A stretch of 50,676 bases of DNA from a virus. Its lineage: Duplodnaviria; Caudoviricetes. Below the pieces are notes generated by a model that saw nothing but the letters and a program-made list of their open reading frames with translations, was not told where the DNA came from and ran no database searches. Positions 1,552 through 50,676 of the stretch are shown here, piece by piece. The first letter of the stretch is position 1. Every line of letters begins with the position of its first letter. The stretch spans positions 1-50,676 of IMG/VR virus record IMGVR_UViG_3300025530_000406. One strand, given 5' to 3'. The translations under genes were made by a program, and so were the position numbers.

Positions 1552-3384
1552 TTGGTTGCCGAAAAGACAGTTGCGCTTTTCCGCCGGCTTTGCAAACAAT
1601 GGGCACCGCTGCCGGAGTTGTCGACGTCAGAATGGGCCGATCAGTACCGCATTCTGACCACCGCAACGAGCGCGGAGCCGGGGCCGTGGAGAACGGACCG
1701 GGCGCCGTATCAGCGCGAGATCATGGATTCGATCAATGACCCGGAGGTCGAAGAAGTCGCGATCATGGCCTCGGCTCAGGTCGGCAAAACGGAGTTTTTG
1801 CTGAACATGGTCGGCTATCACATCGATTATGACCCGGCGCCGATCATGTACGTGTTGCCGACAGACAAATTGGTCGAAACCTTTTCCAAAGAACGCCTTT
1901 CAGTAATGATCGAAGCCAGCCCACGGCTGCGGGACAAGGTCGGAGAGGCGAAGAGTCGAGATAGCAGCAATACGATTTCCGAAAAGAGTTTCCCCGGCGG
2001 ATACATCGCAATCGTTGGGGCAAATTCGCCGTCATCGCTATCGAGCCGGCCGATCCGAATTCTGCTTTGTGATGAGGTCGACAGGTATCCGGTCAGCGCT
2101 GGCAAGGAAGGCGATCCGATTTCCCTTGCCGTTCAGAGAACGAAGACTTTCCACAACAAGAAGCATATCTTCGTTTCGACTCCGACCATCAAGGACGCTT
2201 CTCGAATCGAGCAGTTATATAACGACAGCACGATGGAGCAATATTGCCTTCCGTGCCCGAGTTGTGGCGAGTACCAACCGCTGACCTGGCAGCAAGTTAA
2301 ATTTGAGTACGAGAAAGAGGAGAATGGCGACTTCGAAATCAAGTCGGTGCGGCATGCCTGCAAGGAATGCGGGGCGCTGCACACGGAAAAGGAGTGGAAG
2401 CGCGGGACAGGCAAATGGATCGCGCGGAAAAAGCACTCCAAGCGCCGCGGGTTCCATCTTAATCAGCTTGTCAGCCCGTGGTCGTCCTGGTATGACGTCG
2501 TGCATTCCTTCCTCGTCGCCAATCGTGACGGAACCGAAGCGCTCAAGGTATGGACGAATACCGTCCTGGGTGAATCGTGGGAAGAACAAGGCGAAAAGCT
2601 CGAAGAAGAGACGCTTTTCGGACGCTGTGAGGATTACGGCGCCGAAGTTCCGGAAAAGGTCCGCGTGCTGACGGCAGCCGTCGACGTGCAGGATGATCGC
2701 TTTGAAATTGAGGTCATGGGTTGGGGCCCCGGCAAAGAATCGTGGGGCATCGAATATCACGTCATTTACGGTAACCTGCGGCAACCCGAAATTTGGAATG
2801 AACTCGACGAGTACCTTTCCCGCCGCTGGTCAAAGTCAGACGGTCGACAACTTGGTATCGCGATAACCTGTATCGATTCCGGCGGACACTTTACGACCGA
2901 AGTTTATCGTTTCTGCGCACCGCGGTCACACCGCCGAATATTCGCGATCAAGGGCCAGGGCTCGCGGAACGGTGAATACATCCCGCTGATTGCCGGGCAT
3001 ACGGAGACGCAGCGAGAGAAAGCGATCCTGTTCCGGCTGGGCGTAGATGAAGGTAAGTCGAAGGTGTTCGCCGATCTGAAAGTACAGCACGCCGGTCCAG
3101 GATACTGCCACTTCCCGACCGGCCGCGGATACTCGCTGGATTACTTCCGCGGGCTGACGGCCGAGAAGAAACAACTTCGAAAAAGAATGGGCGTGGCGTA
3201 CTACGAATGGGTAAAGGTCCGGGATCGGAACGAACCGTTTGACCTTCGGGTTTACAACACGGCCGCACTCGAAATTCTGAATCCTAACCTTGACGAACCC
3301 GTTTTACTGAAGCCGAAGCCTGCTGCACAAGCGGCACCAGCCGCGAAAAAGCGTGTCTTCGTGAAGAAATCGAATATTTGGTAG
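1552..3384 (+). CDS. Terminase large subunit (lambda gpA family)
   Basis: Walker A SAQVGKTE, Walker B LLCDEVD, STPT motif, CPSC/CKEC zinc site, VDVQ, DSGG, RNEPFD. Confidence 0.95.
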   Translation: MVAEKTVALFRRLCKQWAPLPELSTSEWADQYRILTTATSAEPGPWRTDRAPYQREIMDSINDPEVEEVAIMASAQVGKTEFLLNMVGYHIDYDPAPIMYVLPTDKLVETFSKERLSVMIEASPRLRDKVGEAKSRDSSNTISEKSFPGGYIAIVGANSPSSLSSRPIRILLCDEVDRYPVSAGKEGDPISLAVQRTKTFHNKKHIFVSTPTIKDASRIEQLYNDSTMEQYCLPCPSCGEYQPLTWQQVKFEYEKEENGDFEIKSVRHACKECGALHTEKEWKRGTGKWIARKKHSKRRGFHLNQLVSPWSSWYDVVHSFLVANRDGTEALKVWTNTVLGESWEEQGEKLEEETLFGRCEDYGAEVPEKVRVLTAAVDVQDDRFEIEVMGWGPGKESWGIEYHVIYGNLRQPEIWNELDEYLSRRWSKSDGRQLGIAITCIDSGGHFTTEVYRFCAPRSHRRIFAIKGQGSRNGEYIPLIAGHTETQREKAILFRLGVDEGKSKVFADLKVQHAGPGYCHFPTGRGYSLDYFRGLTAEKKQLRKRMGVAYYEWVKVRDRNEPFDLRVYNTAALEILNPNLDEPVLLKPKPAAQAAPAAKKRVFVKKSNIW

Positions 3385-25027: not shown

Positions 25028-25351
25028 ATGGAATCCGGACAACTCTTCACGTGGCAAGCTCTCTCCGCGATGGGGGGAGCTTCTTTGTTGACGTACCTGA
25101 TCGTGCAGTATACCAAGGGGCTTGTTGACTGCTTTGCAAAATGGCTGCCGACGGACCTGTACGCGGTCGTGATCGCGACGGCCATTCTGACGGCTGCGCA
25201 ACTCGCCATTGGCGCCGACGCGGGCGACTGGCGGGTGTATGCGCTGGCGTTGGCTAACGGCTTCTTGGTCGCGGCGGCGGCCGGCCAGATGCAGAACAAG
25301 GCGCTGAACCCGCCGGGGTCGGCGGGGAAAGGGGATGAGAACCATGGCTAA
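25028..25351 (+). CDS. Holin
   Basis: Three hydrophobic segments; directly before the endolysin. Confidence 0.75.
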   Translation: MESGQLFTWQALSAMGGASLLTYLIVQYTKGLVDCFAKWLPTDLYAVVIATAILTAAQLAIGADAGDWRVYALALANGFLVAAAAGQMQNKALNPPGSAGKGDENHG

Positions 25352-26240
25352 AGGCATCGATTGCGCGATTCCGCTGACCGCCAGTACGGCCAAAGCGATT
25401 GCCGCATCCGGCTACGCCTTCGCGGCGCGATACCTGGTGCCGGAACGGTATGCCTGGAAGCGGCTGACGAGGGGCGAGGCGGAGGCCATCACGGCCGCCG
25501 GGATGCAGATTGTCAGCGTGTTCGAGACGACCGCCAATCGGCCGGCGGGGGGCGGAGCTGCGGGGATCGTAGACGGCGCCGAAGCCCTCAAAGAGGCTAT
25601 CGCTATCGGACAACCTCTTGGCACGGCCATCTATTTTGCCGTGGACTACGACGCGCAGCCCAAGGACTACGACGCGATTGAGGCATACCTGCGCGCCGCG
25701 TCGTCCGCGATCCCCGGCTATCGGGTCGGCGTTTACGGCTCGTATGCCGTCATTGAGGAAATGGCCCGGCGCGGCGCCGCCAAGCATTTCTGGCAGACCT
25801 ACGCCTGGAGCCGGGGCAGGAAGTCGTCGCGCGCAAACATCTGGCAGCATCAAAACGGCGTCAGCTTGGCCGACGCGACGGTCGACTTGAACGAATCATA
25901 CGGCGGCGAAGGCTGGTGGAACACGAACCCGGCACCGGCGGCCGCACCGCAGACCAACGAAAAGGATACCATCAAGGTCGTCGTCAACGACAAGCTGGCC
26001 GGCTATGGTCGAGCGATTGACGGCCACGTCTATTTACCGTTGCGGCAGCTCGGGGAGGCGCTCGGCAAGGTGGTTCACTGGGACAATGAGTCCAAGCTGC
26101 CATACGTGGACGGCAAGGTCGTGGACGTGTTCGAGATCATCGATGGCACAACGTACGTCGGCGTACGGGCGGCTGCTGAGTTGCTGGGAGCGCGAGTGAG
26201 CTGGAACGGAGAGGTCAAAAAGGTGTTTATTTATCGCTAA
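25344..26240 (+). CDS. Endolysin (GH25-like, DUF1906 type) with C-terminal binding repeats
   Basis: KGIDC, ARYL, IYFAVDYD, GVYGS, WQTYAWS motifs; two repeats of (Y)LPLRQLGEALG..V.W. Confidence 0.85.
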   Translation: MAKGIDCAIPLTASTAKAIAASGYAFAARYLVPERYAWKRLTRGEAEAITAAGMQIVSVFETTANRPAGGGAAGIVDGAEALKEAIAIGQPLGTAIYFAVDYDAQPKDYDAIEAYLRAASSAIPGYRVGVYGSYAVIEEMARRGAAKHFWQTYAWSRGRKSSRANIWQHQNGVSLADATVDLNESYGGEGWWNTNPAPAAAPQTNEKDTIKVVVNDKLAGYGRAIDGHVYLPLRQLGEALGKVVHWDNESKLPYVDGKVVDVFEIIDGTTYVGVRAAAELLGARVSWNGEVKKVFIYR

Positions 26241-26245
26241 TGATC

Positions 26246-26276
26246 GGCCCGGGGGCTTCGGCTCTCGGGCTTTTTG
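26246..26276 (+). terminator. Intrinsic terminator at the end of the late operon
   Basis: GCCCGGGGGC-TTCG-GCTCTCGGGC then TTTTT. Confidence 0.85.
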
Positions 26277-26360
26277 CCATGCAACTTCACTAATTTATTG
26301 TCAAATCAGAAATAAGGAGAATAAGCTGCGATTAATGGTTTAAATTATTTGCAAAATTAG

Positions 26361-26411
26361 GAACATGTGTTCTCAGTTTGATATTGACTACTGGTAAAAT
26401 TGCGTTATTAT
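26361..26411 (+). promoter_or_regulatory. LexA/DinR SOS box plus sigma-A promoter of the TA pair
   Basis: GAACATGTGTTC at 26361-26372; TTGACT 26384-26389 and TATTAT 26406-26411. Confidence 0.6.
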
Positions 26412-26432
26412 TGGTGAAAGGAGGGAAGTGTT

Positions 26433-27089
26433 ATGTACCGAAGTGCCCAACCATTCGCCTATTGGTTTATAAAAAACAATTACGATACACCCAGAAATAC
26501 ATTCGACGGAAATATGAAATTGCAAAAGTTGCTATATTTCTCCCAATTAGTTCATCTCGCAAAATATGATGAGCCATTATTTGATGATACAATTTATGCG
26601 TTTAAACACGGGTCTGTAATTGAAACTGTTAGACAACCTTACAATTACGATTTCCAAAATTATGTAATCAGAGCGCTTTCTCAAAAAATTGACCTTACAA
26701 GCGAGCAACTTGACACTCTCCAAACTGTCGAGGAAATTTTTGGACAATTGTCTGCGTCAGAGCTATCTGATATCAATCATGAACATGTTTCGTGGCGTGA
26801 ATCATATGATAGATCGCTTAGTGGTGGATATTCGTGGAAAGAAAATGCTTATATCACGATAGATCAGTTGCGGAAAAATGAAGTTGACAGTGTTCTTGAA
26901 ATCATTAAAGCGTATGAAGCAGGAAGCGAATTTTCGGAATTCCTTGAAGTTAACGGACGCAAATTTTACTACAATCCAAACCAAGTAACAATTACCTATG
27001 ATTTAATTTCACTGCTTGAATCTTTTGACGGGCCAGATTCAGCATATACAATATATAAGGACGAAAGATCAGGAGTTTTGATTTATTAA
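26433..27089 (+). CDS. Panacea-domain antitoxin (DUF4065/SocA-like)
   Basis: MKLQKLLYF, AFKHGSV (cf. AWxxGPV), LSASELSDINH...W; AT-rich region. Confidence 0.85.
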   Translation: MYRSAQPFAYWFIKNNYDTPRNTFDGNMKLQKLLYFSQLVHLAKYDEPLFDDTIYAFKHGSVIETVRQPYNYDFQNYVIRALSQKIDLTSEQLDTLQTVEEIFGQLSASELSDINHEHVSWRESYDRSLSGGYSWKENAYITIDQLRKNEVDSVLEIIKAYEAGSEFSEFLEVNGRKFYYNPNQVTITYDLISLLESFDGPDSAYTIYKDERSGVLIY

Positions 27090-27517
27090 TGGAAATTATT
27101 CCTGGTCACGGTTTGTGGTTTAAAGGACGCTTTGCCAATGGGACTGTTTGTAATTATGAGCGCCCGTTCTTAGTAATTGAAACAACAGCCACCTTTATCA
27201 AAGCGTTAAATGTTTCATCGACTAAAGGGAAAGAGGCGAAGTTAGCTCGGCCATCGAATAAGCGTCTACGAATACACTTCCCTCCTTTCCCTGCACCGTC
27301 TTTTGTTAAGTTGGATGAATTATACATAATTGATATGTTCCCCGAACTTAATCACGCTATAAGGGACAGAAGAACATTAGATCCATCAGTTTTACGTGAA
27401 ATTATTCAATTTCAGATTGATTATGCACAAAAAAGGATAGTATCTGAAGTTAGGCTCGATATCACGGAATTACAACAATTGAATCCAAGCTTATTTAGAA
27501 CGAAAATCAAACCGTAA
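27089..27517 (+). CDS. Putative toxin, PemK/MazF-like fold
   Basis: ERPFLVI, VSS and SFVKLD pattern; translationally coupled to the antitoxin. Confidence 0.55.
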   Translation: MEIIPGHGLWFKGRFANGTVCNYERPFLVIETTATFIKALNVSSTKGKEAKLARPSNKRLRIHFPPFPAPSFVKLDELYIIDMFPELNHAIRDRRTLDPSVLREIIQFQIDYAQKRIVSEVRLDITELQQLNPSLFRTKIKP

Positions 27518-27556: not shown

Positions 27557-28408
27557 TTACACCACAAACCGCACAAACTCCGGTGCCCGCAACATCCCGG
27601 CCCGGGTCCAATTCCGGAACCGCACAACCGCCTCAATGCTCGGCTGCACATAAACGAAGTCCCGATCCTCACCGGTTATGATCGTCTTTGCAACGCCGTA
27701 AAACGCCTGCCTGTGTGCAGCCGGCACCGCAAGTTCAATGATTCCCACAGCGCGGCCGTTGTGTTGAGCCAGCCAGCCGAATTGATTTTTTCTGTACCCT
27801 GCGATCTGGACGGTGACGTATTTGTAATTGATGATCTTCAGCCAGTTAGGATCGCGTCGGCTGACATACGGACTGTCCTTCCGCTTTGCAACGATCCCCT
27901 CAAGTTCCTTGCCCAGGATCGCCTCAAATAGCGCTGTTCCCGCGCCGTCTACAGCCAGCGTACGGCTGTAGTACCGATTATCCTCCAAAACCTCGTTCAG
28001 CAGCGCCTTACGCTCCGTGAGCGGCCACGAGCGGACGTTCTCACCCTTGTACCGCATGATGTCGAATACAAAATAATGGACTGGCCGCTTTATCGATGCC
28101 TCCCGAATGGACAAGGGCTTTTTCAGCCGAAAACGCTCCATGATGCCCTCAAACTCGATTGCGCCCGTCTCGGGATCCATATAGGCCACCTCGCCGTCCA
28201 GAACAACGTCAGAGCCGTCCTCGATCGGCACGTTATGCAACTCCGGGTACTGGCGCGTGACCTCGTTACCGTGACGCGTGTAGAGCCGAACGACGCCGTT
28301 CTGCATGGACAGAATAAGACGATGGCCGTCGATTTTCGGTTCGAATATGTAACGGTCATCATCGAAAGGCTTTTCGCGTTTTTCAGCCAGCATTGGAGCA
28401 ATAAACAT
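27557..28408 (-). CDS. ATP-dependent DNA ligase (minimal LigD/LigB-like)
   Basis: EPKIDGHR adenylation motif; LDGEV, FDI, EGIVAK, WLKI, LRAPEF. Confidence 0.92.
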   Translation of the reverse strand: MFIAPMLAEKREKPFDDDRYIFEPKIDGHRLILSMQNGVVRLYTRHGNEVTRQYPELHNVPIEDGSDVVLDGEVAYMDPETGAIEFEGIMERFRLKKPLSIREASIKRPVHYFVFDIMRYKGENVRSWPLTERKALLNEVLEDNRYYSRTLAVDGAGTALFEAILGKELEGIVAKRKDSPYVSRRDPNWLKIINYKYVTVQIAGYRKNQFGWLAQHNGRAVGIIELAVPAAHRQAFYGVAKTIITGEDRDFVYVQPSIEAVVRFRNWTRAGMLRAPEFVRFVV

Positions 28409-28491
28409 GGGGAGTGTACACCGTCCGTATATCTAAAATTGATATACCGATTTTAGCATTCTGACCGCTTGTATTGTGACGGTAAATGTTT

Positions 28492-28521
28492 GCATAAGAG
28501 GGAAAGGGAGGTCGCATAATA
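28492..28521 (+). promoter_or_regulatory. SigG-type forespore promoter
   Basis: GCATA-18 nt-CATAATA upstream of the SASP gene. Confidence 0.7.
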
Positions 28522-28548
28522 AGGGGAGAAAATCTTGGAGGTGAGCCC

Positions 28549-28755
28549 ATGGCAGACAATCGCCAACTCGTCGTGCAACAAGCTCGGGCTGCATTGGAAA
28601 AAATGAAATTCGAAGTAGCTCAAGAACTCGGCATTACACTTCCGCAAGACGGGTACTACGGCAATATGACCACTCGCGACACCGGACGCATCGGGGGTAA
28701 TATCACTCGCCGGCTTGTGCAAATGGCCGAGCAACAGCTGGCTGGTCGGTTTTGA
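28549..28755 (+). CDS. Alpha/beta-type small acid-soluble spore protein
   Basis: ALEKMKFEVAQELG...TRDTGRIGGNITRRLVQMAEQQL. Confidence 0.93.
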   Translation: MADNRQLVVQQARAALEKMKFEVAQELGITLPQDGYYGNMTTRDTGRIGGNITRRLVQMAEQQLAGRF

Positions 28756-28774: not shown

Positions 28775-28803
28775 TTGACAATTTGTTTTGCAGGATATAT
28801 ATT
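28775..28803 (+). promoter_or_regulatory. Sigma-A promoter driving the solitary CRISPR repeat
   Basis: TTGACA-17 nt-TATATT; predicted start near 28810; no ORF downstream. Confidence 0.75.
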
Positions 28804-28811
28804 TAAGGTAT

Positions 28812-28844
28812 GTCGCCCGCCATGAGCGAGGCGTGGATTAAAAC
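28812..28844 (+). CRISPR. Solitary type I-C-like CRISPR repeat (candidate Racr / crRNA mimic)
   Basis: GTCGCCCGCCATGAGCGAGGCGTGGATTAAAAC: 5' GTCGC, internal hairpin, 3' GCGTGGATT-AAA-N as in I-C repeats; no second repeat and no cas genes. Confidence 0.75.
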
Positions 28845-28860
28845 AACCTTGTTCCTAAAC

Positions 28861-28893
28861 GACATGGCCCCCGTAAGGGGGCTCTTGTCATTT
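28861..28893. terminator. Hairpin/terminator shared by the repeat RNA and the leftward cassette
   Basis: GCCCCC-GTAA-GGGGGC at 28867-28882, extendable by GACA/TGTC. Confidence 0.65.
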
Positions 28894-29569
28894 ATGCTGT
28901 AGTCTCGCCGGAAAGGATACGCTTTACCCGTTCTTCATGTCCTTCTAAGTTGAGAACATGAGGAAGTATAAGTCTATTGTATTCCTCCATAGTCACCGCT
29001 GTTATTGCGGGCCAGCTCGGAGGAAAGAGGTCTTTTCCTATGTCTTGCCACATGTTGTTAAACTCGAAATTTTCTCGACGCTTAAAGAACATGATGTCTA
29101 CGAAAGACAATTCCACAAAAGCGACCTGATATGTTCCGCCGTCCTTGACGGTGTAAACGGCGGACGTTAGTTGATTATGGTATTTGATGGCGCGAATGAG
29201 CTCTCCTGCCTGTTTGACTGAGCCGCGATTCTTGTCAAACTCTACCGTTGTGTAAAGGACGCCGTTATCAAAATAAACAGTTATAACAGTGTCCTCTACG
29301 TCTACGCGATCGATGGGCGCGACGAATGTTATGCGTCTTTCGGACTCATCGATCGTCATGCTAACTACATCCCAATCAGGGTCGCTCACTTCCTGCAAGA
29401 CCCACTCGTACCAGCTTTGCAATGCTCCATAATGACCAAGGACGAGTGCTTCTTTTACATATTTAGCGTCCGGGATGTTAGGTCCCGAAAATCCATCGAA
29501 GACTGCCAGCGCCCCGGTGTACACTTCATCAAAGGTTCCTTTTACAGAAGTTACTTTTTCGACTTTCAT
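28892..29569 (-). CDS. Hypothetical acidic protein (candidate anti-defence)
   Basis: 225-aa ORF with AAAGGAG RBS, downstream of the ribozyme; no recognisable family. Confidence 0.7.
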   Translation of the reverse strand: MKVEKVTSVKGTFDEVYTGALAVFDGFSGPNIPDAKYVKEALVLGHYGALQSWYEWVLQEVSDPDWDVVSMTIDESERRITFVAPIDRVDVEDTVITVYFDNGVLYTTVEFDKNRGSVKQAGELIRAIKYHNQLTSAVYTVKDGGTYQVAFVELSFVDIMFFKRRENFEFNNMWQDIGKDLFPPSWPAITAVTMEEYNRLILPHVLNLEGHEERVKRILSGETTA

Positions 29570-29635
29570 TTTTAATTTCTCCTTTCGCGCGGCCTCCCCG
29601 AAGGTGAGGTCTTATGCGGTTTTCAACTCGTGGCG

Positions 29636-29700
29636 GGTATCCCGCGACGCTCGGGTGGACGTTTCGGCCGGTTACCATCCGGCCATCATCAGGCGGGGGA
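29636..29700 (-). ncRNA. Type I hammerhead ribozyme
   Basis: Minus strand CCCGC-CUGAUGA-U-GGCCGG(AUGGUAA)CCGGCC-GAAACG...CGUC/GCGGG; all three stems pair; GUC cleavage site between 29646 and 29645. Confidence 0.85.
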
Positions 29701-29725
29701 GAGAGGGGCCGGAGCCCCTCCGCTC

Positions 29726-29890
29726 TCAGTACACAAGCTTAAAATCGTTGTAGTCGATGTCGTCGAAGCCGTGCTCTGCGATAAACGCTTGCTCGTCAAA
29801 TCCGATTACCTCCAACGCTTCATCCACCGTCAAGCTGCGGTTTGTGACCACCTCTCCGACCAGGATGTCCTCGTAGTAGATTTTTGCCAT
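29726..29890 (-). CDS. Small acidic protein, 54 aa (candidate Acr)
   Basis: MAKIYYEDILVGEVVTNRSLTVDEALEVIGFDEQAFIAEHGFDDIDYNDFKLVY; RBS AGGAGAGG; own promoter; not in the ORF track. Confidence 0.75.
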   Translation of the reverse strand: MAKIYYEDILVGEVVTNRSLTVDEALEVIGFDEQAFIAEHGFDDIDYNDFKLVY

Positions 29891-29942
29891 TTTCAACCTC
29901 TCCTTTGATTTAATTTTGTATGTCGTCCCCTGCTGTGATTTA

Positions 29943-29975
29943 ATAATAACATATAAATAATTATATGTAAATAGG
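29943..29975 (-). promoter_or_regulatory. Sigma-A promoter with palindromic operator (cassette C)
   Basis: TTTACA-17-TATTAT with TG extension; inverted repeat ACATATAA-ATAA-TTATATGT at 29949-29968. Confidence 0.7.
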
Positions 29976-29989
29976 GTAAGGCAAAAAAA

Positions 29990-30202
29990 TTAACGGACTC
30001 TTTTGTTTTTCGCGTACTCCTCCAGATCGGATCGGAGATAAAGGCGCGTTTTGCGCGCATCTCCGAATTCCACAAACGGGATGATTCGTCCCGTTTGGAC
30101 AGACTGGTTGAACCCGGAGACGGACTGGCCCGTGATCTTCCGGGCCTCGTCCTGCATAACCAGGTTTTCTTCGATCCATTTTTTAATCTCGTCTCTTTTC
30201 AC
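29990..30202 (-). CDS. Small HTH/excisionase-like DNA-binding protein (Aca-like position)
   Basis: LVMQDEARKITGQSVSGFNQSVQTGRIIP...LYLRSDLEEY; GTG start at 30202 after AGGAGGAG. Confidence 0.7.
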   Translation of the reverse strand: MKRDEIKKWIEENLVMQDEARKITGQSVSGFNQSVQTGRIIPFVEFGDARKTRLYLRSDLEEYAKNKRVR

Positions 30203-30869
30203 GTTTTTTCTCCTCCTCATACCGCTCCAGATAGGGAGCGTAACATTGTTCCTCAGCGCGTTTCCGCGCTTCGGCGGCCTGCTCAATCGTGGGGTATATA
30301 CCGAGATAAATACGTTTGCCGTTGACGGTGATGTTTGCGACGTATTTCACTCGCCCCTTTTTGTCCCGCTGAATTGATACCCCTTTGACTCCGGTCTTGT
30401 TGTTGATTTGGATTTTTTGCCGGAGCAGCGGGGCGAAAACGCCATCGATGGTGTGATGCTGCTCGTTGTGTTGTTTAAGAGACTTCGCAAAGTCTTTCAC
30501 GGCGCAGCCGCAGGATGTCGTATTACCGCTGACAAGATCGCGGGCTGGCACAGCTACGACATTGCCGCACTTACACTCACATACCCAAACAACGATCCCA
30601 TTCCGCAGGCCGTCTTGATGCCTCGCAGTCAGCCGGCCAAAGGTCTGATCGGTCAAGTCAGCTGCCTGTCTACCAAGTTCAAGCTTTTCTCGCGCCAGGC
30701 ACCCGCAGGATCGGGTGTGTCCAGATAGGAGGGCGTATATGTCAAACTCTCGCACCGTGCCACACTCGCAGCGACAAAGCGCGTATCGCTTGCCCTTCCG
30801 CGTTTCGGTCTCACGGATGACGACCAGGCGATCAAACCTCTGATCGGGATGGACTTGTTTACGTGCCAT
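30183..30869 (-). CDS. AP2-domain protein with two CxCxCG/SCGC repeats (homing-endonuclease related)
   Basis: FDRLVV...CRCECG...SCGC twice; C-terminal NKTGVKGV...YLGIY...AAEARKRAE AP2 domain; no HNH motif seen. Confidence 0.75.
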   Translation of the reverse strand: MARKQVHPDQRFDRLVVIRETETRKGKRYALCRCECGTVREFDIYALLSGHTRSCGCLAREKLELGRQAADLTDQTFGRLTARHQDGLRNGIVVWVCECKCGNVVAVPARDLVSGNTTSCGCAVKDFAKSLKQHNEQHHTIDGVFAPLLRQKIQINNKTGVKGVSIQRDKKGRVKYVANITVNGKRIYLGIYPTIEQAAEARKRAEEQCYAPYLERYEEEKKREKRRD

Positions 30870-31231
30870 TACACCACGTCCTTCGCGTCGATCCGGCGAT
30901 AGTCGCCACTAGCGACCCGGATAAAGTAACGATTGCCGTTTTCGCAAACCTCGTATACACCTTCGGCCAGTTCCCACGTCGTTTCGCCCCAGGCGATCGG
31001 ATTGATGAACTTGCGCTCGAACTTGTAAACCGGATGCGTGCCGACGATTGCGGCGACCCACGTTTTGGATTTGCGGTTCGGCTGGCGCAGCTCAATCGTT
31101 ACGCGTTTTGGACGACGGGACTCTGCCCATGCCATGCGCAGTGCGTCGGCGATGTATTCCGATGCCTTGCCACCGTGAATGCTGGCTGCCGCCTTAGCGA
31201 TTTCCCATGCCCGCGTCATAACGTTTTTCAT
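30869..31231 (-). CDS. Hypothetical protein (MTRAWEIAK N-terminal module)
   Basis: First gene after promoter B; good RBS. Confidence 0.7.
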   Translation of the reverse strand: MKNVMTRAWEIAKAAASIHGGKASEYIADALRMAWAESRRPKRVTIELRQPNRKSKTWVAAIVGTHPVYKFERKFINPIAWGETTWELAEGVYEVCENGNRYFIRVASGDYRRIDAKDVV

Positions 31232-31271
31232 CTCGATCCGCTCCTTTGTTCATCTTGTTCCTTATGTCTAT

Positions 31272-31304
31272 ATAATAGCATGCAAATAATAATATGTAAA
31301 TAGG
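31272..31304 (-). promoter_or_regulatory. Sigma-A promoter (cassette B)
   Basis: TTTACA-17-TATTAT with TG extension; 20/21 nt identical to 29955-29975. Confidence 0.7.
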
Positions 31305-31345
31305 TCGGAACAAAATTTTCATAGGAGAACAGAAGAGCAGGAGGG

Positions 31346-31657
31346 TTAATCTCGCTGCTCTTTGTCAGCATTGAGCAAATGTTTGATCGTCCCTATGTGC
31401 CAGTATCCCCGGCCGCCCTCGTCGCACCCATCAAATGGAGGCAATGTGCCTCGCTTAACCCTATCTTGGATCGCGCCTCGAGTTATGCCTAGCTGCCGAG
31501 CAAGATCGGCCTGATAGATGCGTTTGCGGATGTCGCCAGGTCCGTAGGCGTTACCGTCTGGATCAACCAGTACCGGTTGCCCGTGCGAGCTAGCGGCGTG
31601 ATCGGTTGTAATGCGCCATCCCTCCCAAATGCCGGTTCCTGTCCAAATTTCGCTCAC
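31346..31657 (-). CDS. Protein with C-terminal HTH (Aca-like position)
   Basis: IYQADLARQLGITRGAIQDRVKRGTLP; GTG start. Confidence 0.7.
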   Translation of the reverse strand: MSEIWTGTGIWEGWRITTDHAASSHGQPVLVDPDGNAYGPGDIRKRIYQADLARQLGITRGAIQDRVKRGTLPPFDGCDEGGRGYWHIGTIKHLLNADKEQRD

Positions 31658-31705
31658 TCCTCATTCCTCCATTTCCAGAAAAGGGGAGGTCAACCTCCCC
31701 AATGA

Positions 31706-32131
31706 TTAGAAAATTTTAGCGATAACCACGGCGTCCTTAATGACGATCTCGTTTTCATCGGGGTCATCGTGGCGGCCTTCGCGGTGGCCGGCGATCACGT
31801 AGCAGTGGTCGGCCAAAAAGAAACTCCGGCAATCTTTTTCAAGGTTGATGCCGTATAAGCTGTACATTCCGGGATGGTACTGTTTACCGTAGATGCTCGG
31901 GTCCATGTTCCAAGCGCTCGTGCCGTCGAGGATTTCCATTTCCTCGTATTCAGGCGTACCATAGGCCGGGAAGTCACGTTCGTCCTCGCGGTCGGCGTTG
32001 TGACGACTGTTCTCGCAAACTTCGCCGATTTCCCGGTCTTTGTTTTCGAAGCGAAGACCGATGTAGTAATATTCATCCTTATGTTTTTCGTAGATCGCTT
32101 TTACCAGCTCGTACATTTGAACGATGTTCAT
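31706..32131 (-). CDS. Acidic hypothetical protein (candidate anti-defence)
   Basis: 141 aa; GGAGG RBS; first gene of cassette A. Confidence 0.75.
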   Translation of the reverse strand: MNIVQMYELVKAIYEKHKDEYYYIGLRFENKDREIGEVCENSRHNADREDERDFPAYGTPEYEEMEILDGTSAWNMDPSIYGKQYHPGMYSLYGINLEKDCRSFFLADHCYVIAGHREGRHDDPDENEIVIKDAVVIAKIF

Positions 32132-32164
32132 TTCGTCCGCCTCCGTTCCTTGGGCTCTGATATA

Positions 32165-32195
32165 AATATATCACAAACCTATACTTATGTATAGG
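32165..32195 (-). promoter_or_regulatory. Sigma-A promoter with palindromic operator (cassette A)
   Basis: TATACA-17-TATATT; CCTATAC-TTAT-GTATAGG at 32178-32195 overlaps the -35. Confidence 0.65.
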
Positions 32196-32212: not shown

Positions 32213-32256
32213 TTGACAAAATATTTCCTTGCCCCTAAAATGAGAACAAACGTTCT
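32213..32256 (+). promoter_or_regulatory. Sigma-A promoter with LexA/DinR SOS box
   Basis: TTGACA-17-TAAAAT; AGAACAAACGTTCT at 32243-32256. Confidence 0.8.
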
Positions 32257-32274: not shown

Positions 32275-32478
32275 GTGTCTATTGAAAAGTACATTGGTCG
32301 TCGCGTCGAAGTTATCTACGAGGATAGCAAAGGGCGGATTACAAAACGGGTGATTACGGTTTACTCGATAAGAGATGGCCGGGCCCGCGTGCTGGATTGG
32401 GGCAAAAGATCGTACCGGACGCTCAGCATCAGCCGAATCCTGGCTGTGGTGCCGGTGGTCGGGAGACATGCATCATGA
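32275..32478 (+). CDS. Small WYL/YolD-like SH3-fold protein
   Basis: VEVIYEDSKGRITKRVI...RTLSISRIL pattern. Confidence 0.6.
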   Translation: MSIEKYIGRRVEVIYEDSKGRITKRVITVYSIRDGRARVLDWGKRSYRTLSISRILAVVPVVGRHAS

Positions 32479-32894
32479 ATGTTGAGTTGCGCGGCAAAGC
32501 GACGCCGGACGAATTGGAGATCATTCGGAGCGTGCTCGTACTGCAAAATATGGTCATCATGCTCGATAAGCAATACTCAGACATGCAATACTCGCTACAC
32601 GTGTTAAAGCCGCTATATCTCCAGGTAACGGAGGCGCTGATCGTGGCCGTCAATCGAGATTTGGCGGACTTGCGCCGGGAACTGCGGCGGCGGAAGATCA
32701 AAATAATAGACGACGAGCAAAACGACTTTGTGCTTTATGTCAATTATATCTGCCGCGGATATGAGGAGCGGATCGGGTTTACGAGAGAGGTCGTAAAGAC
32801 TCAAATCCGGCTCCAACTGACGCAGTACATCCAAAAGATTTTGAGTCCAATCAACCCTCACAAAGCACCTGCGCAGGAAGCGAATTTGTTGTAA
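32475..32894 (+). CDS. Hypothetical SOS-regulated protein (YhjD-like)
   Basis: Overlaps the upstream stop; YICRGYE motif; family assignment tentative. Confidence 0.55.
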   Translation: MNVELRGKATPDELEIIRSVLVLQNMVIMLDKQYSDMQYSLHVLKPLYLQVTEALIVAVNRDLADLRRELRRRKIKIIDDEQNDFVLYVNYICRGYEERIGFTREVVKTQIRLQLTQYIQKILSPINPHKAPAQEANLL

Positions 32895-32929
32895 AGTAAA
32901 ATACAGGAAAAGCTCATGGGGGTGCTGAT

Positions 32930-33478
32930 TTGATGAGGCGTTTTGCACAGATCAGTGTTTTTGGGGTACTGCTCATATCGATCATTTCGGGATGCAACGG
33001 CGGAAAAGCTGACGGTCTCGGGAAAGACGACTTGTGCGTTGTCAAGGTCGCGGACAAAAATATAAAAGTCTGCTACGGAGACACCCGGGAAACCGCCGAA
33101 AAAGTGCTCGGAAGCGGCACTAAACAGCAATTTGGTACCGAATACGACAACGGCATAACCATCATGTACCGAGGGGATGTCGTCGCCGGGATCACGATGG
33201 ATGAGGATGCGAAGGGCTCATTTCGGACATCTCGCGGCGCTGAGATCGGCATGACGAAAGATGCTGTGATGGAGCTTTACGGGAAAAAGGGAATTGAGAA
33301 CTCCGGAAACACCCTTGATTACAACTACGATACCGGAGCCAAGCGTTTTCTGGACGTGGAATCGTTGAGCAATTACAAAGTAGACGAATCCGTTTATGTC
33401 GTGTCAATCACTTATGGAGACGACGGCGTGGAAAGAATCATGCTGCTGGATCGGAAAATGGCGATTACCTTGTCTTAA
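32930..33478 (+). CDS. Lipoprotein (possible superinfection exclusion)
   Basis: Signal peptide with lipobox ISGC; RTSRGAEIGMT motif; next to the repressor. Confidence 0.7.
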   Translation: MMRRFAQISVFGVLLISIISGCNGGKADGLGKDDLCVVKVADKNIKVCYGDTRETAEKVLGSGTKQQFGTEYDNGITIMYRGDVVAGITMDEDAKGSFRTSRGAEIGMTKDAVMELYGKKGIENSGNTLDYNYDTGAKRFLDVESLSNYKVDESVYVVSITYGDDGVERIMLLDRKMAITLS

Positions 33479-33540: not shown

Positions 33541-33646
33541 GAGGGCGTGGTACATATCAAAACAATCGACTTACAGGACTATCTGAACCTACTGGATGCA
33601 AAAGGGATCGACACGGCCAATGCGAGGGCCTACTTAGAAAATATCA

Positions 33647-34090
33647 TCACTTATCAAGCATCTCCGCAGCCGCCTGCAGTATCTTCACAAGTTGCGTTTT
33701 CTGTTCGTCCGTTAGGGCATGACCCTTGTACGTAAGTTTGTGATTGGCCAATTCCTCAATAGGTATTTCTGAAAGCCCCTTCTCGTCATACGAGGATGGG
33801 CTTTCTTTTATTTTTGGCGTCCCATCATCCAACCGCATCGGCTCCAGCAATTCATCTTCGTCCCAATACCCGCAAACGACCATTAATTCGACCAACGACG
33901 TTGTATGCAAATATTTAGCCAGAGTCTTAATCGTGTCTGCCTCTGGCTTCTGAATACCGGCCTCAATCCGCGAAATGGTTGCCGACGAAATTCCAGATTT
34001 ATCTGCAAGTCTGCGCTGACTCTTAAATCCACTCGCAATTCGGTGATACTCGATAAACTTGCCGAAATCCATCTTTGACATTTTCGACAT
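33647..34090 (-). CDS. Prophage repressor (XRE HTH)
   Basis: SQRRLADKSGISSATISRIEAG...P; divergent from a Cro-like gene. Confidence 0.88.
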   Translation of the reverse strand: MSKMSKMDFGKFIEYHRIASGFKSQRRLADKSGISSATISRIEAGIQKPEADTIKTLAKYLHTTSLVELMVVCGYWDEDELLEPMRLDDGTPKIKESPSSYDEKGLSEIPIEELANHKLTYKGHALTDEQKTQLVKILQAAAEMLDK

Positions 34091-49146: not shown

Positions 49147-50676
49147 ATGCAGGAAAAAATTAAATGTGCGATATATGCTAGGGACAGCACAGACCAACAA
49201 GGCGACACAATCGAAAACCAGATCAGTCAGGGCAAAGAATACATTTCACGCTTGGGCGATCAGTACGACGCGGAGGACGTAGCGATATTCATTGACCACG
49301 CGGTTTCCGGTTACTATACGAGCGTGTTTGAACGGCAAGCGATGAAAGATGCCGTAGCCGGCGCCAAACGTGGGGATTTTAAACTGATTCTTTTTAAAGA
49401 AGTCAGTCGCGTCGGGCGGGACAAGCAAGAAAACCCGGCGATTGTCGGGATTTTTGAGCAGTACGGGGTGCGTGTAATTGCGATCAATGACAACTACGAC
49501 AGCTTGAATAAAGATAACGTGACATTCGGCATCCTTTCCGTGTTGGCTGAACAGGAGAGTATAAAAATTTCCTCCCGCGTCAGTAGCGCAAAGAAACAGA
49601 AGGCGAGGCGGGGCCTTTGGAACACAGACGCGCCAATCGGCTATCGTTTGAACTCCGAAACCAAAAAGCTTGAAATCGATCCAGACAGCAAAGAGATCGT
49701 GGAGTCCATTTTTCACATGTATGTTCACCGCGGGATTGGATCGTTTCTTATCGCGCAACACTTGAACCGAAACGGAAAAAAGACACGGGATGGCAATCCG
49801 TTTAGTCGGGAGTCCGTCAAACGAATCCTCCGGAACCAGGCCTACATCGGGAATACGGTTTACGGCAAAAAGCGAAACGAACTCAGGCGTGAATATGATG
49901 ACTCAGGCAAAATGACCAAACGAAAAGTACAGGTAAAGATCGATCCGAAGGATTGGACGATTGTCGAAGGAACGCATGAGCCGATCATTGACAAAGAAAC
50001 GTTTTACGCTGCCCAAAGAATCTTGGCTGGCCGTGGACACCACAGGACGCCGCGAAGGGCATACCATCCCCTAACGGGTATTTTGTTTTGCGCAAAATGC
50101 GGACAAGGCATGGTCTGCCAAAAGCGAAGCTTTCAAAGCAAACAATACCGATACTATATTTGCAAGACGTATCACAAATACGGTCGCAATGCATGCCCTC
50201 AGGCGAATGTTAATGCTGACGAATTGGAAATGAAGGTGATTAGTGTCGTTCGCGGCCGCTTGTCTGCTTTGTCCACTTCAAATATCATCGCTTCGGCTGA
50301 TAGGAGCGTGGATTTATCGAGGCTGGAGAATGAACGGAAGACCAAACAAAAGCAGCGGGAGAAATTGCAAAAAGATCAAATCGATATTTTCGGCCAGCGT
50401 GATTTGTTCGACGATCAAACATATCAAGGCATGATGGTTTCGTTAAAAAAGCAGATTCAAACCATTGACGAGGAAATAGCCATTTTGGACGGACAAATAA
50501 AGGCGATCCGCGAAGAGTCAAGCCAGACAGCAAACGTAGTGAACATTATCGAGGACTTCCTATCTCTCGATGTGAATGATACCGAAAGGCTACGGACGAT
50601 TCTGCATGAATTGATCGAGAAGATCACGCTCGCGGACAATCATATCGACATTCGTTATCGTTATTCCATTATGTAG
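49147..50676 (+). CDS. Large serine recombinase (integrase)
   Basis: YARDST catalytic Ser, SRVGR, APIGY recombinase domain, CAKCG...YYIC...C zinc ribbon, coiled coil. Confidence 0.95.
   Translation: MQEKIKCAIYARDSTDQQGDTIENQISQGKEYISRLGDQYDAEDVAIFIDHAVSGYYTSVFERQAMKDAVAGAKRGDFKLILFKEVSRVGRDKQENPAIVGIFEQYGVRVIAINDNYDSLNKDNVTFGILSVLAEQESIKISSRVSSAKKQKARRGLWNTDAPIGYRLNSETKKLEIDPDSKEIVESIFHMYVHRGIGSFLIAQHLNRNGKKTRDGNPFSRESVKRILRNQAYIGNTVYGKKRNELRREYDDSGKMTKRKVQVKIDPKDWTIVEGTHEPIIDKETFYAAQRILAGRGHHRTPRRAYHPLTGILFCAKCGQGMVCQKRSFQSKQYRYYICKTYHKYGRNACPQANVNADELEMKVISVVRGRLSALSTSNIIASADRSVDLSRLENERKTKQKQREKLQKDQIDIFGQRDLFDDQTYQGMMVSLKKQIQTIDEEIAILDGQIKAIREESSQTANVVNIIEDFLSLDVNDTERLRTILHELIEKITLADNHIDIRYRYSIM

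Follow-up and report, generated by a model that had tools for sequence, protein, structure and literature searches.

The complete 50,676-nt IMG/VR provirus record IMGVR_UViG_3300025530_000406 (hereafter the window) contains three tandem gene cassettes transcribed leftward at 28892-32193. We read these cassettes, with a probability of roughly one half, as an array of self-regulated accessory operons in which small helix-turn-helix (HTH) repressors would act at palindromic operators. The cassettes have a real architectural likeness to operons that combine anti-CRISPR (Acr) genes with an Acr-associated (Aca) repressor gene. At the level of sequence, the features of the array, their conservation and the co-inheritance of regulator with operator are established. 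The parts of the array are listed below in the direction of transcription; promoters and hairpins are from sequence scans, and loci of relatives carry labels beginning with L.

32193..32165, minus strand: promoter P3, TATACA-17-TG-n-TATATT, driving o141 and kept in the close relative L002
32178-32195: P3 palindrome CCTATAC-ATAA-GTATAGG, 7-bp arms, over the -35 element and the spacer
31706-32131, minus strand: o141, 141 aa, acidic (pI 4.72), cassette 3
31683..31700, minus strand: GC-rich hairpin (7 pairs, 6 of them GC) followed by a T-run with the tail TTTTCTGGAA, between o141 and hth103
31346-31657, minus strand: hth103, which closes cassette 3; winged-HTH protein whose N-terminal extension is conserved
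31300..31272, minus strand: promoter P2, TTTACA-17-TG-n-TATTAT, with the operator-like ACAT-N12-ATGC
30869-31231, minus strand: Gp111-family protein, 120 aa, basic (pI 9.76), cassette 2
30183-30869, minus strand: AP2-type DNA-binding protein, 228 aa, cassette 2
29990-30202, minus strand: hth70, excisionase/MerR-type winged-HTH protein, last gene of cassette 2
29971..29943, minus strand: promoter P1, TTTACA-17-TG-n-TATTAT, upstream of o54
29949-29968: P1 palindrome ACATATAA-N4-TTATATGT, 8-bp arms
29726-29890, minus strand: o54, 54 aa, very acidic (pI 4.05), cassette 1
29570..29725, minus strand: GC-rich structured spacer of 156 nt, between o54 and o225
28892-29569, minus strand: o225, 225 aa, acidic (pI 4.74), cassette 1, in the exchangeable slot
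28866..28883, both strands: bidirectional terminator hairpin, common to cassette 1 and the solitary-repeat RNA

The promoter scan reproduces, on the minus strand, the three leftward extended -10 promoters at the coordinates given in a preliminary description of this DNA, each with a TG before the -10 element. The surrounding 9.5-kb region holds 22 promoter-like sites, versus 11.9 +/- 3.3 in shuffles. P1 and P2 are identical at 29 of 33 positions and have the 21-mer CCTATTTACATATWATTATTT in common, differing within it only at the degenerate W. This agrees with the 20/21 nt reported earlier for two of the promoters, and the 21-mer, with its two matches in the window, is absent from 100 shuffles. 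The earlier report of palindromes at the -35 element and spacer of two promoters also holds. The palindromes of P1 and P3 each have a single match in the window (0.06 and 0 expected, respectively), and by eye neither is present in the cI-cro intergenic region, where other repeats occur. L002 carries a perfect 18-bp form of the P3 palindrome, as judged by eye. P2 has only GCATGC as a palindrome, and its site is homologous to the P1 operator (ACAT...ATGC). In P1 and P3, the sequence thus shows the promoter inverted repeats expected of an acr-aca operon, and P2 has a homologous site. The P1 -35 element follows the hth70 stop codon by 18 nt, and the P2 -35 element follows the hth103 stop codon by 45 nt. 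The scan reports no terminators between the cassettes, so that the cassettes may read through into each other; the hairpin between o141 and hth103 is possibly a partial terminator.

Cassettes 2 and 3 end in a small HTH gene, as the preliminary description had it and as in acr-aca operons, and cassette 1 does not. hth70 matches the Pfam model HTH_17 with 22 bits (cut-off 27) and an excisionase family of PHROG at 5.8e-8. hth103 matches several Pfam HTH models weakly, among them HTH_17 at 0.0087, and the PADLOC model mad1 at 1.4e-5, the sole PADLOC match. The match to the Pfam model Phage_Cox reaches only 0.068. Among the papers listed by a literature search, none relevant links Aca proteins with excisionases or HTH_17.

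The comparison of loci agrees with the proposed pairing of regulator and operator. The motif TT[TG]ACAT-N12-ATG[TC]-TATnnT is present in seven of the nine loci with an hth70 homologue and in none of 39 loci (362 kb) without one. Of the two hth70 loci that lack it, L045 breaks off 27 nt ahead of the gene, and L046 matches hth70 itself only weakly and in part. The motif is located before gp111-AP2-hth70 and/or directly after hth70, before o54. In the gene-neighbourhood check suggested with the preliminary description, hth70 travels with the P1/P2-type operator. The regulators also recur beside different cargo, which is the guilt-by-association pattern, in both the hth70 and the hth103 families. 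In the window, L002, L039 and L041-L044, hth70 comes after gp111-AP2. In L018 it comes after o141, and a P1/P2-type promoter drives o141 and then the hth70 homologue, without gp111 or AP2. The hth103 family, with homologues at 66-70% identity in L048, L049, L050 and L051, lies behind o141 in the window and L002. In L048, a promoter with ACATTAATTAATGT is followed by an unrelated 113-aa gene and then by the hth103 homologue.

A similar arrangement, with other pairs of operator and regulator, extends to further lineages among the relatives of o141, which are found in 37 viral loci. In many of these, o141, o54, gp111 and the AP2-type gene co-occur in shuffled order (tblastn). In most of them, the 150 nt upstream of o141 contain, by eye, a promoter of the sigma-A type whose hexamers enclose or overlap a palindrome particular to the lineage. 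L027 and L017 have the same palindromic promoter and, by eye, the same 68-aa HTH_17-like last gene, and differ by one gp111-like cargo gene. The gene that follows o141 was tabulated in 30 of the 37 loci (all except L002, L012, L014, L022, L025, L030 and L033) and scanned against Pfam in six. Among these six it is a 60-aa HTH_59 protein in L011 (1.2e-8), a weak HTH_17 protein in L017 and a 49-aa protein with a weak ribbon-helix-helix (RHH) match in L037; in L023, L015 and L036 it has no DNA-binding match in Pfam.

In the model that we favour, the array would consist of three serial accessory (moron-type) operons of a temperate Paenibacillaceae phage, placed between the lysis genes and the cI-like repressor and transcribed leftward. 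Each operon would start at a near-consensus extended -10 sigma-A promoter with a palindromic operator over the -35 element and spacer, and the operators are probably bound by the small winged-HTH proteins of the excisionase/MerR type whose genes stand at the ends of operons. Specifically, hth103 would act on P3, its candidate operator, and hth70 would act on its own promoter P2 as well as on P1, directly downstream of hth70. Such negative feedback would produce a burst of expression on DNA entry and then a low set level. The logic would be that of acr-aca operons, where the Aca repressor acts at inverted repeats in the acr promoter. Leftward transcription would end at the bidirectional hairpin that also serves the solitary-repeat RNA. 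The cargo would fall into two classes, namely conserved phage proteins that occur in shuffled order across Bacillales prophages (o141, Gp111, the AP2-type protein and o54) and an exchangeable slot after o54 and the spacer, filled by o225 here and by a Csx16-like protein plus a 242/255-aa protein in two relatives. Binding, repression and timing, together with any action of the cargo on the host, are what we infer from this layout.

Several observations weigh against this model. The hth70 loci belong to related phages, so their co-occurrence with the operator partly reflects shared ancestry, and the P1/P2-type motif was refined after its first matches had been seen. Across the whole collection, a P2-like pattern is found in 14 viral stretches. 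Four of them have hth70, all in contigs already known, and the other ten are AT-rich and unrelated. The P3 palindrome occurs in 10 stretches, with hth103 only in the close relative L002, so that the link between hth103 and its operator comprises the window and this one relative. The HTH assignments consist of sub-threshold Pfam matches, one PHROG match and one PADLOC match, and neither hth70 nor hth103 has a sequence match to any PDB chain, solved Aca proteins included. Cassette 1 lacks its own regulator gene. In addition, the hth103 homologue stands directly before a tyrosine integrase in L049 and before a large serine recombinase in L050 and L051, and the hth103 family may therefore act as an excisionase-like factor.

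This adjacency is in line with another reading, which we consider improbable, that the cassettes are lysogeny-module or early-left genes. Here hth103 and/or hth70 would be an excisionase/directionality factor or a Cox-like switch, the AP2-type, Gp111, o54 and o141 proteins would serve phage regulation or DNA metabolism, and the palindromes would be switch operators. The PHROG excisionase match of hth70 fits such a role. The array runs in the direction of the cI-like gene next to it, at the point where the lysis module gives way to the lysogeny module; in Paenibacillus phage Halcyone, the o141 homologue is placed in like manner. Moreover, the AP2-type protein is a predicted DNA binder, and o54 is elsewhere joined to RHH-like domains. 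Within the window, however, neither HTH gene adjoins an integrase, unlike the hth103 homologues of L049 and L050: hth103 lies 17.5 kb from the only recombinase (49147-50676), itself 23% identical to that of L050. Since there are two HTH_17-type genes, at most one of them would be the directionality factor. The occurrence of regulator-operator modules beside different cargo fits local feedback better than a genome-wide switch.

The cargo genes were described earlier as ORFs (open reading frames) of 54, 225, 120 and 141 aa, and all four are present at the computed coordinates. Three of them are acidic, as stated there, because o54, o225 and o141 have pI values of 4.05, 4.74 and 4.72, versus 9.76 for the 120-aa protein. 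They had all been regarded as of unknown kind. This stands for o54, o225 and o141, whereas the 120-aa ORF belongs to Phage_Gp111 (PF07410; 99.8 bits against a cut-off of 27.1, E = 1.9e-28, residues 3-111), a family of which no mention was found in the literature searched. The list of cassette contents was right in its four ORFs and two HTH genes and lacked the 228-aa AP2-type gene of cassette 2. The latter protein contains Cys-rich repeats and an AP2-like domain (21.6 bits, below the Pfam cut-off), without an HNH nuclease domain, and matches PHROG 374 at 9.3e-41 over the DNA-binding repeats only.

Of the kinds of profile and structure search that had been proposed, those of Pfam, PHROG, NCBIfam, PADLOC, the PDB and BFVD gave no match of any cargo ORF to a known anti-defence family, PDB chain or fold. 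PADLOC has no cargo match, and an NCBIfam scan assigns 0 families to 10 proteins. Among 50,697 cultured-phage records, the four cargo proteins have no match of known function; o141 is found there only in three Paenibacillus larvae phages, where it is annotated as hypothetical, and neither o54 nor o225 occurs there.

o141 represents a conserved family of Bacillales prophages, with 107 homologues at E <= 0.001 and many invariant polar residues. Its predicted structure is confident, with a predicted local distance difference test score (pLDDT) of 92.6. Neither the PDB searches by sequence and by profile nor Foldseek give an informative match for o141. In the Foldseek search, the PDB yields nothing at E <= 0.001 and BFVD yields one uncharacterised protein at 8.1e-4; the ESM Atlas search gives no usable match. 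o54 has 146 homologues, 68-96% identical, in Paenibacillus, Heyndrickxia, Neobacillus, Oceanobacillus, Weizmannia and other genera of the Bacillales, and its ESM Atlas search returns unnamed clusters only (0.76-0.77). In L035 (1869-2192) and L024 (3409-3711), o54 is in frame with an N-terminal RHH-like part that matches RelB and VapB weakly. By sequence, o54 may here form part of fusion proteins with DNA-binding regulators. In both loci a ribosome-binding site (RBS) precedes the o54 ATG despite the in-frame reading. o225 is a near-orphan, with one cluster in a word-indexed search and seven matches among 1.84 billion representatives. Its predicted structure is mediocre (pLDDT 66.7), and Foldseek finds nothing in the PDB at E <= 0.001.

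The weak antitoxin matches of the o54 fusions, the enzyme-like invariant residues of o141 and the operons of two genes, one for a DNA-binding partner, behind a promoter with a palindrome would also suit toxin-antitoxin-like pairs, autoregulated at the palindromes, with o141-hth103 as a toxin-first pair and o54 joined by an HTH/RHH protein. We regard this as very improbable. In many of the 30 loci tabulated, o141 is followed by gp111, AP2 or an unrelated gene, with no adjacent DNA-binding partner. Both candidates, o141 and o54, are acidic, the latter with a length of only 54 aa, and no match to a toxin or antitoxin family reaches its curated threshold.

The variable part of the array is the end of cassette 1, where the slot behind o54 and the neighbouring solitary repeat have the following components.

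28775-28803, plus strand: solitary-repeat promoter, 11/12 to consensus
28812-28844, plus strand: type I-C-like solitary CRISPR repeat of 33 nt, convergent with o225
Window 29570-29618, L002 3636-3676, L039 5205-5253: repeated 40-49-nt segment with a hairpin and RBS
L002 3082-3624, L039 4641-5183, L034 3716-4651: Csx16-like proteins, in the slot in L002 and L039

P1, o54, the spacer (156 nt, 95% identical) and the solitary repeat together with its promoter are all kept in L002 and L039, and in both o225 is replaced by a 180-aa Csx16-like protein together with a 242/255-aa protein. The Cas_VVA1548/Csx16 matches fall just short of the cut-off of 25 bits, with 23.8 in L002, 24.1 in L039 and 24.9 in L034. 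According to one report (bioRxiv 10.1101/2024.09.24.614671), Csx16 is a ring nuclease for cyclic tetra-adenylate (cA4) and is present in 2 of 28,114 phage genomes. In L002 and L039, the final 40-49 nt of the spacer appear again ahead of the second cargo gene, and this segment may be a cassette boundary used in recombination.

A ribozyme had been placed beside the array in the preliminary description, and this part is abandoned. By eye, the spacer holds hammerhead-like motifs (CUGAUGA, a 6-bp GC stem, GAAAC and GUC). It has no ribozyme family match in Rfam at gathering scores, nor at E <= 5 / E <= 10 on short stretches, and its fold is no more stable than that of shuffles (z = -0.81). Covariation is absent from the three copies, which are 95% identical, and a mismatch in the putative stem II of L002 is left uncompensated.

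The solitary repeat is 48 nt from the o225 stop codon, and its RNA has a fold z of -4.0. The unit is conserved in L002 and L039, with two base changes in L002. A scan of species-representative genomes for the repeat pattern finds no CRISPR array, only two single matches in unrelated metagenome-assembled genomes. Solitary repeats are able to work as RNA anti-CRISPRs and are found together with acr genes (PMC10651486).

These features bear on the earlier proposal of an Acr-Aca-like anti-defence island. Its architectural half is borne out by the promoter palindromes, the cargo, the terminal HTH genes and the comparison of loci; for its functional half, the searches give no match to a known anti-defence family. 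As a reading of the whole array, with new inhibitors among o54, o225, Gp111 and o141, with hth70 and hth103 as Aca proteins and with the solitary-repeat RNA acting alongside, we hold it to be doubtful, if conceivable. Three cargo proteins are small and acidic within the Acr-Aca-like layout, the near-orphan o225 sits in an exchangeable slot, and a repeat with its own promoter and terminator lies close by and is kept in L002 and L039, all of which suit an island of this kind. So do the co-localisation reported for solitary repeats and the near-threshold Csx16 proteins in the neighbourhoods of L002, L039 and L034, of a family described as rare in phages. None of the proteins resembles a solved Acr, Aca or anti-defence protein by sequence or fold, and the repeat pattern belongs to no array in the species-representative genomes, which both argue in the other direction. 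Moreover, the gp111-AP2-hth70 block is conserved rather than variable, and the RHH fusions of o54 in two loci point to regulation. Typical Acrs have a narrow range and evolve fast, whereas o54 and o141 are broadly conserved.

Within the proposed array of self-regulated operons, counter-defence is our leading guess for the exchangeable slot only. The solitary repeat and the near-threshold Csx16-like gene of the relatives are suggestive, and keep the anti-CRISPR idea alive for cassette 1 only. For o54, Gp111 and the AP2-type protein, with their likeness to conserved phage regulatory or DNA-binding proteins, such a role is less likely. A more far-reaching proposal is that a new Aca-like class of excisionase/MerR-type winged-HTH repressors controls a counter-defence locus with at least one new inhibitor family, likeliest o225 or the enzyme-like o141, alongside the solitary-repeat RNA, and that relatives swap in a Csx16-type ring nuclease against type III signalling; this we think unlikely.

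Both DNA and protein matches point to a host in the Paenibacillaceae. The gene map of the window is as follows.

1-471: sigma-like gene
1552-3384: terminase
After 3384, plus strand: long ORFs, taken as structural genes without a domain scan
25335-26240: endolysin
26433-27517, plus strand: low-GC Panacea-domain gene and 142-aa ORF
27557-28408, minus strand: ATP-dependent DNA ligase
28549-28755, plus strand: gene for an alpha/beta-type small acid-soluble spore protein (SASP)
28775-28883, plus strand: solitary-repeat unit (promoter, type I-C-like repeat and terminator)
28892-32193, minus strand: cassettes 1 to 3 of the array
32213-32255, plus strand: divergent rightward promoter TTGACA-17-TAAAAT with the LexA/Cheo-like box GAACAAACGTTC at 32244-32255, which marks the limit of the array on this side
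33647-34090, minus strand: cI-like repressor
Right of the cI-like gene: early genes
49147-50676: large serine recombinase, closing the window on the right

The cassettes have a GC content of 0.46-0.57, the phage (the window) of 0.53 and the Panacea pair of 0.36-0.38. This pair consists of a Panacea-domain (SocA-like) gene that overlaps the basic 142-aa ORF, and it is probably a toxin-antitoxin-type pair acquired recently. The accessory region also holds the DNA ligase and SASP genes. The ligase recurs near o141 in L004, L016 and L044, and L002 has no SASP gene. In Pfam at E <= 0.01, the cI-like repressor to the right of the array gives HTH domains and nothing else. It adjoins the rightward operon 32275-33478 (plus strand) of o67, o140 and a lipoprotein gene, which starts behind the LexA-like box; an SOS-controlled antirepressor function for this operon is a speculation. 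Perfect GAAC-N4-GTTC boxes, which we take to be the LexA/Cheo-like consensus, occur only twice in the window (26361-26372 and 32244-32255), in promoter regions on either side of the accessory region. One is upstream of the Panacea gene and the other just after the -10 element of the o67-o140-lipoprotein operon. Their number alone is insignificant, as 22 of 100 shuffles have at least two copies.

RNA-library contigs from one run that are identical to the window cover 28833-29621 (o225) and 31806-32119 (part of o141), as well as 26477-27299 (the Panacea pair) and 33543-33860 (the cI-like gene). This evidence consists of contigs, and DNA carry-over is possible in such libraries. The Panacea pair has the highest RNA-library contig depth in the stretch compared. 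Among the contigs listed, none covers the endolysin stretch 25367-26467 or the ligase/SASP stretch 27936-28669, which is not evidence of silence.

To our knowledge, few anti-defence genes are known for Bacillales prophages. If the regulatory model is true, accessory or counter-defence cassettes in these prophages could be recognised by excisionase-type HTH genes that are paired with matching palindromes in the promoters. The exchangeable slot beside the solitary repeat provides a short list of candidates, namely o225, the Csx16-like protein and its 242/255-aa neighbour. Should the cargo be ordinary regulators, the locus would still be a clear case of operator-regulator modules moving jointly between phages.

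Compared with acr-aca operons, the array has the same strong promoter with inverted repeats over the -35 element and spacer, the same order of small, partly acidic cargo first and a small HTH gene last, and the same joint movement of regulator and operator with different cargo between them among relatives. It differs in its regulators, which are of the excisionase/MerR winged-HTH type with no detected likeness to solved Aca proteins, and in that one operator type serves two promoters flanking the regulator gene. The cargo includes no known Acr and two broadly conserved proteins. Excisionase-type regulators can repress promoters too, as in P2 Cox and AlpA/Vis-like proteins. The HTH genes here would share with them the small HTH_17-like fold class and, for hth103, have homologues beside integrases, whereas neither gene of the window is near a recombinase. 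Phage morons are accessory genes with their own promoter and terminator in late-early junctions. Like morons, the cassettes carry individual promoters, occupy the junction of the lysis and lysogeny modules and exchange cargo in close relatives; unlike morons, they have a GC content close to that of the phage and no terminators between them.

For type I-C systems, an acrIC5-racrIC1 locus is reported in PMC10651486. Unlike the RNA anti-CRISPR (Racr) loci of that paper, the repeat RNA here is a separate unit, convergent with the protein genes and without a common transcript. Like the Racr and solitary repeat units described there, it has its solitary repeat directly after a strong promoter, beside candidate counter-defence cassettes.

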